64,000 bases of DNA, taken from sequence record OP795442, one strand, 5' to 3'. Position numbers and translations under genes: made by a program. The notes under the pieces were generated by a model. It searched no databases. It saw only the letters and a list, made by a program, of their open reading frames with translations, and was not told the DNA's origin. The stretch comes from Escherichia phage A7_1. Of this stretch, positions 6,241 through 54,746 are shown in pieces (the stretch's first letter is position 1; each line of letters starts with the position of its first letter).

Positions 6241-6256
6241 TCTTAATAACTAATTA

Positions 6257-6286
6257 AAGGTCACCTTCGGGTGGCCTTTTTTATTA
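6257..6286 (+). terminator. rho-independent terminator after capsid gene
   Basis: Hairpin AGGTCACC-TTCG-GGTGGCCT (one G-U pair) followed by TTTTTTATT. Confidence 0.75.
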
Positions 6287-6364
6287 TGCCTGTACAATTT
6301 AACCAAAATAGTGTACCATTATAAGATAGGCTATTAATCTAATCAATGACGAAGGAGTTATTTA

Positions 6365-51695: not shown

Positions 51696-51753
51696 TTGTT
51701 TCTCCTTTCTGTTTGGTATGGGAGAAGTATAGGGGAGTTTAGGAGGGGTGTCA

Positions 51754-51782
51754 ATAGAAAAACCGCCCGAAGGCGGTTTATT
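51754..51782 (-). terminator. rho-independent terminator after primase-helicase (minus strand)
   Basis: Minus strand reads AAACCGCC-TTCG-GGCGGTTT followed by TTCTATT; downstream of the stop at 51793. Confidence 0.65.
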
Positions 51783-51792
51783 TTGAAAAATA

Positions 51793-52902
51793 TCAGAAAG
51801 GTGCTTCGTCGTCGAAATCTACATCTTCAACTTCCGGTACATCAGGAATGTCACCTGCGGATTCAACGATACTCTGTTGTTCCCACGTAGGTTCCTCTGA
51901 AGGTTGGTCCATTTCTTCCATAACCTTCTTGATCTCTTCCTCTTGCTCACGTAGGAAGTTATCATCCGGCTCAGGAATATCTTCCTCTTTAATATCTGAA
52001 CGAGTGAGATCACTGTTTTGTTCAGACAAAGGTTGAATCTCTGCGGCCTTAGGTTTGAAATCTGGAGAACGATGATCATCTTCTGGATGAGCGGCATACC
52101 ACTCACGAAGAGTTTCATAAGGACTCTCTAGGAAGCCCTCTGGCGGTTCCAGATAATCACCTGTATCAATGTCATAGAACACAGGGAATTTACCAGCACG
52201 ACCGTGTTTACGGTCATCCAGGATAACAAAGTAAGAAGTGTTACGTTGTTTCATCGGAAGCTCTGGATCTTTGTTACGTTCAATACCCCACATATAGTAA
52301 GTGTTTCGCATCATTGCACGGCTACCAGCAAACTGCGCCGACTGGACTTGACCACCAAATTCATGAGGCTTACCAGATTCAGGCTTGTTAAGGTGACAGA
52401 AGCAATAATAAGTAAAGCCAAGCTCTTTTGCCAGTTTGGAGATCTCATCCGAGAATCGTTCCAGTTCCTGGTTAGCTTCAGAAGCACTCATACCTTGCAC
52501 AAGACGAGTGATCGGGTCAATAAAGATATCTTCACAACCTTCTACGATCACTGCGTGACGGATAGCACCTTTCAGTTCATCCCATACTGCACGACCATAG
52601 TTGTTATAATAGATAACACTATCACCAACTTCATCAGTAGCTTTGATCAGTTCTTCTTGCTTAAAGTAGCCACGTTGACCTTCAAATACTTCATTACCCC
52701 AAATGTCACGGAAAGTTCCATCTTCTTGAGGAATCATTACCTTTTCTGCGTTAACAAAGTCTTTATGATAACGCTTACCTGCGATCTTCTTACAAGTGAT
52801 CTCGTTCTCTTCTTCAAACTTAAACACCGCAGCTTTTGACTTCTCAATACCCGTGATGTGTTCAACCATTTGGTTAAGAAGTTCAGACTTGCCCATTTTC
52901 AC
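51793..52902 (-). CDS. primase-helicase, 3' exon (gp4 / DnaB-like helicase domain; proposed exon starts near 52899)
   Basis: Begins (V)KMGKSELL, the second half of a Walker A; CHLNKPESGKPHEFGG resembles T7 gp4 CHLKNPDKGKAHEEG; acidic tail ...VDFDDEAPF. The annotated GTG start is probably intron sequence. Confidence 0.75.
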   Translation of the reverse strand: MKMGKSELLNQMVEHITGIEKSKAAVFKFEEENEITCKKIAGKRYHKDFVNAEKVMIPQEDGTFRDIWGNEVFEGQRGYFKQEELIKATDEVGDSVIYYNNYGRAVWDELKGAIRHAVIVEGCEDIFIDPITRLVQGMSASEANQELERFSDEISKLAKELGFTYYCFCHLNKPESGKPHEFGGQVQSAQFAGSRAMMRNTYYMWGIERNKDPELPMKQRNTSYFVILDDRKHGRAGKFPVFYDIDTGDYLEPPEGFLESPYETLREWYAAHPEDDHRSPDFKPKAAEIQPLSEQNSDLTRSDIKEEDIPEPDDNFLREQEEEIKKVMEEMDQPSEEPTWEQQSIVESAGDIPDVPEVEDVDFDDEAPF

Positions 52903-53652
52903 CGTTATGTTCGACAGGGTTCGCTACTCCCTGCCCGTTCTCTTACGAACTGCTACATGTCCCCATGCAGACCAGACTATATCTTCAACCTGTTTCCAGG
53001 TGCTATGCACTTCGGACCGCTTGGTCCTACTCTACTCGATTCAAGAGTCTAGCTCTTGTCTTTCGATAGTCGTTGCTCCTTCCTCTCAACCGCTTTGTAA
53101 TTTGTCTTACGGTATCTCTGTGTATCCCAAAATGCTCTGCAATTTCTTTTTGTTGAAGCGTGGTATTAATAACCATTTCGTAAACCTGCTTCTCAAAATC
53201 ATCAGCATATCTATTTGGATTTCTTCTACCGTTGGCCCAACCATGATCGACATTTTCTTTCGTGGTTGTCCATTCCAAATTAACATCGTTGTTGTTTTGC
53301 CTGTCGCTATCTTTATGATTAACAACAGGAAGGTTATGAGGGTTATCAACGTAGTGTTCAGCCACCAATTGGTGAATAAATCTACGTGTAACCTTACCAT
53401 CTTTACTTAACGAAACTCTAAGATACCCTGAACTATTGGTATCCGGTTTGAGTTTTTTAAGCTTCCGGTAAACATCTCCCCTTCGGGTAATGATGTAATT
53501 TTCAAAACCTTTTATTCTTTTCATTTCCCCCTCCTTGCAATAAACAAAGAGGTTGAGAGGCTTGGATCAGGATTACGTGTTCTACGCTTCCCCTGAGTTC
53601 ACATAGTATTTAGTCGAGGCATCTCTGCCAAGGCTGGCTAGACTTAATGTTT
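52900..53652 (-). mobile_element. putative self-splicing (group I-type) intron carrying an HNH homing endonuclease gene
   Basis: Insert between ...GAG (exon ends in U) and KMGKS (preceded by G). Candidate P1: exon GCUGGU pairs with intron GCCAGC 15 nt in. Intron has GACTAAAT and AAGATATAGTC elements. Boundaries approximate. Confidence 0.5.
53027..53524 (-). CDS. HNH homing endonuclease (intron-encoded)
   Basis: 165 aa; N-terminal GFENYIITRRGDVY (NUMOD4-like), HNH core HQLVAEHYV...NHKD...NLEWTTTKEN, C-terminal helix-turn-helix-like segment; own RBS AAGGAGGGGG. Confidence 0.8.
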   Translation of the reverse strand: MKRIKGFENYIITRRGDVYRKLKKLKPDTNSSGYLRVSLSKDGKVTRRFIHQLVAEHYVDNPHNLPVVNHKDSDRQNNNDVNLEWTTTKENVDHGWANGRRNPNRYADDFEKQVYEMVINTTLQQKEIAEHFGIHRDTVRQITKRLRGRSNDYRKTRARLLNRVE

Positions 53653-54588
53653 ACCAGCACCGATGAAGTAACCTTCACCTGGACGACGACCCAAGGTAAG
53701 CTTGGTCATGGTGGGCCAAGGGAACTTCTTGCCGAGTTTAGGGATCTCATGTGCCTTTTCGCGGAACTGTGAATAAGTCGAGAAACCATCCGGCACATAT
53801 TCCTTTGGCTTCATTGCAGCCCAAAACAACTGATCAGAAAGTCCTTTGTTATACATGTCGCAAGGGTCCATATCTTCTGGAATGTCCACGACCTTCATTT
53901 GTGGAATTACAGAGTATACCGCTGCAACTGCATCTTTACCTTTCATGATCCCTTTGGCCTTCTCTGCTTCTGTCGCACGGTCAGCATCGAAAGCTACGAT
54001 AATCTCTTCAAACTTACTCAGAAGCTTATAGTTATTCTTCTGTGATAAGTTTTGCACGGCATTGGATGTACCGTTAGAGATAGATACAACTGTGAAGTTT
54101 GGTTTACGAGTGGAACCATCCTTCGGTTTGTACTTCTCTGTCAATACCTGCCACAAGATTGCAGCATCGTATTCACCTTCAGTGATAAAGATCATACGTT
54201 TGGAAGACTTGTTTGCACCTTCCAGACCAAACATATCACAGGCTACAGATTGGAAACCGATAGTTGTAAAGTGCCCTTTCTGTTGCTTAGGGATCGTAAG
54301 ATCACGCTTTTTAAAACCTACAACCTTACCTTCCAATGTGTACGGAAAATAATGTGCTTCTGGAGTCATACCGTCTTTAGCTGACAACTTGGTACGAATA
54401 CCAAATCGTTTAGCTGTCTTTTCGTCGATACCACGCTCAGGGATACTTTTACACGGGTAAGTCAATACATCTTCAACTGTTTCTTCCACACGAGACACAC
54501 CACCACCATAATTACGTGCTACTGAAGCTTTAGGATTTTTATGTCCGAACTTATAACCGCCAAACAAACTTTCGCCAATAGTGCTCAT
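53644..54588 (-). CDS. primase-helicase, 5' exon (TOPRIM primase domain; proposed exon ends near 53653)
   Basis: TOPRIM motifs IFITEGEYDA and VAFDADRAT; C-terminus LTLGRRPGEGYFIGAG parallels the segment preceding the T7 gp4 Walker A; ORF stops 3 codons later (KH*) inside the insert. Confidence 0.75.
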   Translation of the reverse strand: MSTIGESLFGGYKFGHKNPKASVARNYGGGVSRVEETVEDVLTYPCKSIPERGIDEKTAKRFGIRTKLSAKDGMTPEAHYFPYTLEGKVVGFKKRDLTIPKQQKGHFTTIGFQSVACDMFGLEGANKSSKRMIFITEGEYDAAILWQVLTEKYKPKDGSTRKPNFTVVSISNGTSNAVQNLSQKNNYKLLSKFEEIIVAFDADRATEAEKAKGIMKGKDAVAAVYSVIPQMKVVDIPEDMDPCDMYNKGLSDQLFWAAMKPKEYVPDGFSTYSQFREKAHEIPKLGKKFPWPTMTKLTLGRRPGEGYFIGAGKH

Positions 54589-54746
54589 TACTGCTCCTTG
54601 ATCATCGTCGCCAAATAAATAGTGTTACCGTTTGAATTAATACCTGTTGTTACAGAACCCATCAATTTATAACCGTAATCGTAATATTCTACAATACGCC
54701 TTTCAAGAGATAGTGTATTTGTATAAGTCAGGATCTTAACGTCCAT
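54588..54746 (-). CDS. small hypothetical protein (52 aa, not in ORF track)
   Basis: ATG overlaps the upstream stop and its TAA overlaps the primase ATG (TAATG); carries AAGGAG for the primase within its 3' end. Confidence 0.3.
   Translation of the reverse strand: MDVKILTYTNTLSLERRIVEYYDYGYKLMGSVTTGINSNGNTIYLATMIKEQ

Follow-up and report, generated by a model that had tools for sequence, protein, structure and literature searches.

Three described systems stand closest to a 750-nucleotide (nt) insert in the primase-helicase gene of Escherichia phage A7_1 (sequence record OP795442): in architecture the intron of phage Pf-WMP3 with its endonuclease I-PfoP3I, as a solved enzyme the endonuclease I-HmuI, and as a relative with evidence of splicing the nrdA intron of phage CB7. 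The stretch of A7_1 DNA that we analyzed, hereafter the window, is 64,000 nt long, and all features described below lie on its minus strand unless stated otherwise. In kind, the insert is a textbook phage group I intron of subgroup IA2 with an HNH homing endonuclease, a type of selfish element long familiar from phages. The Pf-WMP3 intron has the same P7.1 and P7.2 core and an HNH open reading frame (ORF) of about 160 amino acids (aa) that extends from the P6a loop through P6, P7, P7.1 and P7.2 (PMC3428280), and it too has its insertion point within a highly conserved motif, in a replication gene that is essential. Unlike the window intron, which lies in the Walker A motif of a primase-helicase and has a P2 helix, it interrupts a DNA polymerase gene and lacks P2; its splicing and nicking were shown by experiment, whereas the window intron is known from sequence.

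I-HmuI, an HNH nicking enzyme from the DNA polymerase intron of Bacillus phage SPO1, resembles the predicted endonuclease of the window in being intron encoded and in combining an N-terminal DNA-binding region and an HNH motif with a C-terminal helix-turn-helix (HTH), but the match is distant (E = 1.4e-14, residues 2-106 only), and the target gene and host are different. The T4 td intron is likewise of the phage IA2 type, with an ORF looped out of P6, a ribosome-binding site (RBS) held in a hairpin, and homing accompanied by co-conversion (PMC2988022). Its endonuclease, I-TevI, belongs to the GIY-YIG and not the HNH class, however, and in the window intron neither an internal late promoter nor an operator was identified. 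The CB7 nrdA intron, with the HNH gene CB7_202, is spliced in infected cells, as established by reverse transcription-PCR and sequencing (PMC7344957). The nrdA intron of CB7 and phiTE also comes from the Vequintavirinae, has an equal layout and is 84% identical to the window intron over the roughly 90 nt aligned in the 3′ part of the ribozyme, but it interrupts a ribonucleotide reductase gene, and its endonuclease is only about 38% identical.

The source of the window is classified here, from its nucleotide matches, as a Septuagintavirus-like coliphage of the Vequintavirinae: by megablast against phage genomes, it groups with the Vequintavirinae Escherichia phages A5-4 (97%), UPEC06 (93%), W70, A73 and LTH01, which have been published as Septuagintavirus (PMC11370258). 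Three minus-strand ORFs, reported in an earlier reading of the letters of this DNA (the original prediction), are present at 53644-54588, 53027-53524 and 51793-52902, as are all the short motifs quoted with them. The upstream ORF, predicted to be a TOPRIM primase, encodes 314 aa, ends ...GEGYFIGAGKH* and gave weak Toprim matches in Pfam, while the downstream ORF, predicted to be a gp4-like helicase, encodes 369 aa, opens GTG AAA ATG GGC AAG TCT, or (V)KMGKS, and matches DnaB_C. When the two exons delimited below were joined in silico, they yielded 2046 nt encoding 681 aa without internal stops. This product aligned without gaps to the uninterrupted primase-helicase of A73 (98.8% identity) and was 83-86% identical to the products of the genes that PcCB7V, CR3 and DU_PP_I, all Certrevirus phages, carry in uninterrupted form. 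Residues 51-529 of the joined protein formed one alignment with the T7 gp4 structures 5IKN, 6N7I and 1Q57 (E about 1e-20) that crosses the junction, which maps into the SGSGMGKS motif of gp4, and the restored Walker A sequence AGVKMGKS matches the pattern [AG]x4GK[ST]. On this homology, the host gene is a T7 gp4-type primase-helicase that combines a TOPRIM primase and a DnaB/RecA-type helicase in one polypeptide.

Alignment of the window with the intron-less A73 genome by BLAST breaks between 53654 and 53653 on the upstream side and between 52903 and 52902 on the downstream side, leaving the 750-nt insert; across the insertion site, the A73 protein reads ...GEGYFIGAGVKMGKSELL.... Because this comparison could be combined with the splice-site rules of group I introns, the boundaries are fixed at 53652 and 52903. 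The intron (52903..53652) starts AAACAUU and ends ...AACAUAACG, with the omega-G at 52903 (nt 750); intron nt n corresponds to 53653 minus the window coordinate. Exon 1 (53653..54588), the primase/TOPRIM half, comprises 312 codons up to ...YFIGAG, and exon 2 (51793..52902), the helicase half including the stop codon, begins GUG AAA AUG GGC AAG UCU (V K M G K S). The 5′ splice site follows U 53653 (GGU/AAACAUU, with the slash marking the junction), and the 3′ splice site follows G 52903 (...AACAUAACG/GUGAAAAUG). Exon 1 ends in a U that is paired as U.G in P1, and the intron ends in a G, whose position is set by the comparison with A73. The insertion point lies between codons G312 and V313 of the Walker A loop (GAG/VKMGKS), and the exon 1 frame continues for two intron codons before a stop (AAA CAU UAA). 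The predicted junction of ligated exons in RNA is ...GGUGCUGGU/GUGAAAAUG..., or in longer form ...GGTGCTGGT/GTGAAAATGGGC...; at DNA level, the insertion site reads GGGGCTGGGGTCAAGATGGGTAAGAGT in A73 and GGTGCTGGTGTGAAAATGGGCAAGTCT in the window with the intron deleted.

The original prediction had joined GAG directly to KMGKS, with a 3′ splice site at 52900/52899. All five uninterrupted homologues (A73, LTH01, PcCB7V, CR3 and DU_PP_I) read GAGVKMGKS, so that the valine is kept and the site is corrected to 52903/52902, 3 nt upstream. Comparison with intron-less homologues had been proposed as a check on whether the two halves are natural separate genes, and in these five phages they form one continuous gene; in A73 and LTH01, it is a single uninterrupted primase/helicase gene of 2046 nt each. 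An insert in the Certrevirus genes as well, suggested by BLAST breaks at the exon boundaries, was rejected, as the Certrevirus genes checked are continuous.

The secondary structure was drawn by hand from a covariance-model (CM) alignment and the sequence. P1 consists of 6 base pairs (bp) between the exon end GCUGGU (53658-53653) and the internal guide GCCAGC (53638-53633, nt 15-20), with the U.G pair at the junction, just as first described; the loop measures 14 nt. P1 is followed by the P2 hairpin GGCA-GAGA-UGCC (53618..53629, nt 24-35), which has a GNRA loop and in which all 4 pairs covary, and by the J2/3 element GACUAAAU (DNA GACTAAAT; 53608..53615, nt 38-45), which the CM alignment shows as inserted sequence separating P1/P2 from P3. 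The original prediction had taken this last element for the R element with P7, and because a J2/3 sequence was thus mistaken for R, the distance from P1 to P6 had seemed too short. CM alignment and covariation instead put the 5′ strand of P7 at 53071-53067; the actual spacing is normal, with the ORF in the P6a loop. P3 pairs CUAUGUG (53606-53600, nt 47-53) with UGCAUAG (53009-53003, nt 644-650), and 6 of its 7 pairs show double changes. The block from the 5′ strand of P3 to P5 (53567..53606) further contains J3/4 (AAC), P4 (nt 57-62 with 81-86, 100% paired in relatives) and P5 (nt 66-69 with 75-78). The 5′ strands of P6 (nt 88-89 with 574-575) and P6a (nt 93-102 with 562-571) lie at 53551..53565 (CC, AAG, CCUCUCAACC), and their 3′ strands at 53078..53091 (GGUUGAGAGG, AA, GG).

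Downstream of the ORF loop, the R element CAACGACUA (53067..53075, nt 578-586), invariant in 13 of 13 relatives, comprises J6/7 and the 5′ strand of P7. P7 pairs GACUA (53071-53067, nt 582-586) with UAGUC (nt 674-678) and forms a pseudoknot with P3. Between its two strands lie P7.1 (53066-53036, nt 587-617), P7.2 (53027-53014, nt 626-639), which covaries, and P8, ACCUG-GAAA-CAGGU with a GAAA loop (53001-52988, nt 652-665). The S element UGAAGAUAUAGUC (52987-52975) consists of J8/7, UGAAGAUA, and the 3′ strand of P7; the S-like sequence that had been pointed out earlier, AAGATATAGTC, is found within it at 52985-52975. P9 with a GGGA loop (52970-52953, nt 683-700), P9.1 (52950-52937, nt 703-716) and P9.2 (52935-52913, nt 718-740) complete the structure. 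In the window, all 79 of the 79 pairs drawn from P2 to P9.2 are standard pairs, and the 252 nt by which the insert exceeds its ORF form a complete core. Subgroup IA2 is recognized by P7.1 and P7.2 hairpins between P7 and the 3′ strand of P3, joined by a G-U-A linker (PMC3428280). The predicted layout from P1 to P9.2 has both hairpins in that position and is therefore subgroup IA2; the linker is GUAGAGUA in the window, with GUA contained in it, and exactly GUA in the introns of Klebsiella phage Roth32 and Vibrio phage JSF38.

To this structure we compared 13 ORF-less or ORF-trimmed introns aligned with MAFFT. The relatives came from the tail of the megablast results (Roth32, JSF38, coliphage kvi and Pectobacterium phage CB7) and from a scan of IMG/VR with a 28-mer spanning the 3′ strand of P7 to P9 (loci L008-L017). 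Blind to the drawing, RNAalifold recovered P2, P3, P4, P5, P6, P6a, P7.2, P9 and P9.2, with double changes in 37 of 50 pairs. With P7 included as a pseudoknot, 88.2% of the cells of the full structure were paired, versus 33-42% when the partners were slid; both partners were altered in 47 of the 79 pairs, and the observed values were reached in 0 of 500 shuffles. P7 and J8/7 were invariant. The MAFFT alignment is unreliable in P1, P8 and P7.1, where the low pairing (50-58%) reflects misalignment, and the cross-pairing matrix is noisy, since G.U pairs were allowed. P1 was therefore checked one sequence at a time, and in each of the 12 relatives whose 5′ splice site was mapped, position −1 is a U and a P1 of its own, 4-8 bp long, lies at nt 8-20.

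The insert as a whole lies far beyond chance, and we regard it as highly probable that a functional group I intron, able to splice and equipped with an HNH endonuclease gene, splits the primase-helicase in its Walker A motif. The central proposal of the original prediction is in this respect supported by the intron-less homologues, the gapless spliced product, the covariation, and the score of a closely related allele with Rfam model RF00028, whose gathering threshold is 50 bits. At the identical site, W70 carries a natural ORF-less copy of 283 nt, and this copy reaches 70.4 bits (E = 5e-17). Outside its ORF, the A5-4 intron matches the W70 copy with 100% identity, and 2 positions distinguish the window from A5-4. 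Several observations nevertheless weigh against this assignment. The covariance-model scan that had been proposed as a check gave the window itself only 24.9 bits, with the 3′ part alone aligned (E = 6e-4 in 1.2 kb and 0.034 in 64 kb), and a scan of the entire 64-kb window at Rfam gathering thresholds gave no match; the score is low because the 498-nt ORF sits in P6a. The P1 pairing is within chance when taken alone, as shuffling the first 40 nt of the intron gives at least 6 bp in 8.6% of cases, and we treat it as supportive but on its own not decisive. An inspection by eye for P10, comparing the start of exon 2 with the bases 5′ of the guide, found nothing convincing at the junction, although a displaced 4-bp pairing (CAUU/AAUG) is possible. 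Splicing in this phage is, moreover, predicted from the DNA, and some HNH-containing interruptions of related phages do not splice: CB7_245 and, as cited in PMC7344957, the mobE insertion in nrdA of Aeh1.

One other HNH interruption of CB7 does not splice (PMC7344957), and a decayed or non-splicing intron, with the gene permanently split and its two polypeptides acting separately or reassembling, keeps a small probability. Exon 2 does offer possible start codons (GUG and AUG), and in the GenBank records of relatives each half is annotated as a gene of its own. We nonetheless consider this reading improbable: all core helices are intact, the U at −1 and the omega-G are kept, and W70 retains the ribozyme despite loss of the endonuclease gene. 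Within this same lineage, the helix positions at which the window and UPEC06 differ have changed in a compensatory way, namely C67-G77 to U-A and G68-C76 to C-G in P5, A628-U637 to G-C in P7.2 and G722-C736 to A-U in P9.2, which speaks for continuing selection on the fold. The position of the split within the P-loop also speaks against two working polypeptides, as a helicase fragment would begin VKMGKS, without the preceding strand and GAG.

A free-standing HNH gene between two naturally separate genes, flanked by ribozyme-like motifs that arose by chance, would be in keeping with the abundance of such genes in the Vequintavirinae (PMC7344957) and with the subthreshold score of the window. It is contradicted by the single continuous gene in five uninterrupted homologues, the above-threshold score of the ORF-less W70 allele, the strong covariation and the complete core formed by the non-ORF nucleotides, and we give it next to no credence. 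An assembly or sequencing artifact, or an intein-like in-frame element, appears just as implausible: we found nothing in favor of either, A5-4, UPEC06 and W70, all sequenced independently, have the same insert at the identical site, and the insert is out of frame, reaches a stop after 2 codons and has no intein motifs.

If the insert splices as a group I intron, the exon end GCUGGU of the pre-mRNA would pair with the guide GCCAGC to form P1, and the core (P3-P8, with P7 as GACUA/UAGUC) would bind guanosine and cut after U 53653. Exon 1 would then be ligated to GUG... after the omega-G at 52903, giving one mRNA for the 681-aa primase-helicase. On unspliced RNA, translation would end two codons into the intron, leaving a helicase half without the strand and the first P-loop residues. 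By analogy with I-HmuI, I-BasI and I-PfoP3I, the endonuclease would nick or cut intron-less alleles near the insertion site, and recombinational repair would copy the intron into the cut allele (homing).

The endonuclease gene (53027..53524) encodes 165 aa with an I-HmuI-like N-terminal region, an HNH motif and a C-terminal HTH. Its ORF, from the AUG at nt 129 to the UAG at nt 624-626, is looped out of P6a, but its last 21 or so codons double as the 3′ strands of P6a and P6, J6/7, the 5′ strand of P7, and P7.1, and its stop codon shares the first base of P7.2. In the alignment with I-HmuI (PDB 1U3E), the NHKD...NN...N motif is aligned and the HNH residues are intact, and the protein matches PHROG 59, "HNH endonuclease" (E = 4e-43). 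Pfam returned HNH_3 slightly below its cutoff (21.4 versus 24.8) together with helix-turn-helix families. The HNH part of the original HNH/NUMOD4 assignment is borne out by the 1U3E and PHROG matches, while NUMOD4 (PF07463) is only subthreshold (E = 0.016, 15.9 bits versus a cutoff of 23.4, residues 2-40). Counterparts of the protein are encoded by A5-4 (100% identity), UPEC06 (85%) and metagenomic locus L009 (73%), and it is otherwise rare among isolated phages. We predict that it is an I-HmuI-like HNH homing endonuclease, with activity and specificity as presumed from its relatives.

As the original prediction had noted, the gene has its own RBS, a Shine-Dalgarno (SD) sequence AGGAGG 6 nt ahead of the AUG at 53524. 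This SD forms the 3′ strand of a 9-bp hairpin, CCUCUUUGU/GCAAGGAGG (53530..53552; −15.7 kcal/mol, z = −2.2), and all 8 of the related endonuclease-bearing introns that we folded have an equivalent hairpin, of differing sequence, that buries the SD ahead of the endonuclease start codon. SD-sequestering hairpins are documented for I-TevI, I-TevII, I-TevIII and mobE (PMC2988022), and by analogy the hairpin probably keeps endonuclease translation low on the pre-mRNA. It would thereby limit ribosomes there and leave folding of the ribozyme undisturbed. The candidate for an internal promoter of the endonuclease gene is a weak sigma-70-like match (9/12) at 53631-53603.

Three allele states exist at this site: intron with endonuclease gene (the window, A5-4 and UPEC06), intron without it (W70) and no intron (A73 and LTH01). 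The exon flanks compared span about 53636-53670 and 52886-52902 of the window. Within 17 nt on either side of the junction, the intron-less alleles show 8-9 synonymous differences from the window, against a gene-wide rate of 4.4%, including U to G at −1 and a serine switch from TCT to AGT; the intron-containing alleles have 0 or 1 flank difference. Such clustering fits co-conversion of the donor exon flanks, target variants that would escape cleavage, or both. W70 also has a second insert of 847 nt in the helicase half (locus L003, 2413-3259) with another HNH gene, an RF00028 score of 25 bits and the same core motifs; the corresponding site of the window (52305/52306, ATG ATG CGA/AAC ACT) is empty.

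Cores similar to that of this intron occur in 641 phage records, and the family is therefore common. In the primase-helicases of other phages, related introns occupy at least two other positions in the Walker A codons, all within one 12-nt stretch of P-loop coding sequence. At metagenomic loci L009, L014, L015 and L017, the intron follows AUGGGU (KMG/KS, residues 316/317), 12 nt downstream of the site used in the window and corresponding to window position 52890/52891; the host gene at L009 is the orthologous primase-helicase (66-77% aa identity), while those at L014, L015 and L017 are more distant. Phage Roth32 and locus L010 have the intron inside the valine codon of GAGTGV/GKT, a position used in Klebsiella podophages, and locus L012 has one at GGAG-S/GKS of its host gene. 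Between L009 and the window, the ribozyme is 92% identical from P3 to P7 and the endonuclease 73%, whereas the P1-P2 segments are unrelated (34%). The shared core and endonuclease next to unrelated P1-P2 segments suggest replacement of the guide module, and we tentatively propose that one intron-endonuclease lineage may have shifted between neighboring P-loop positions by swapping only this module. Phage DNA polymerase genes, with their intron sites 674 and 676, provide a precedent for such close spacing within a conserved motif (PMC3428280). If the proposal is true, the Walker A codons of phage primase-helicases would be a multisite homing hotspot, the target of the endonuclease would be uncoupled from the insertion point, and retargeting would need just a new guide sequence.

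Around the gene, the primase-helicase start codon shares bases with the stop codon of an upstream 53-aa ORF (TAATG, 54588-54591), which suggests translational coupling of the two. Directly 3′ of the helicase stop codon lies a hairpin resembling an intrinsic terminator, AAACCGCC-TTCG-GGCGGTTT with a run of T residues (51760-51779), followed, ahead of the next gene, by an 11/12 sigma-70-like promoter match, TTGACA-17-TATACT (51726-51754). A permissive Rfam scan of the 64 kb returned this intron and a chance-level MicX match only; neither a second intron nor a tRNA is present in the 64 kb. The MicX small RNA match, at 6243-6338 on the plus strand, has 24.3 bits where the threshold is 75 (E = 0.32) and most likely arose by chance.

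The intron is annotated neither for this phage nor in related GenBank records: those of A5-4, UPEC06 and W70 (OP744025, MW250786 and OP778610) list separate "hypothetical protein," "HNH endonuclease" and "primase/helicase" genes. The description of the genus reads the fragments as distinct helicase repertoires and never mentions introns (PMC11370258). Recognizing the predicted intron restores an essential replication protein of 681 aa and corrects gene counts and orthologue tables. It also adds a further instance of a homing intron lodged in those codons of an essential gene that are most conserved and least mutable. Intron endonucleases can affect competition among co-infecting phages, according to one report (PMC11620839), and the alleles with intron and endonuclease, with the intron alone and with neither offer a natural series in which intron gain, endonuclease loss and co-conversion may be followed in the Septuagintavirus phages, which have been proposed for therapy.

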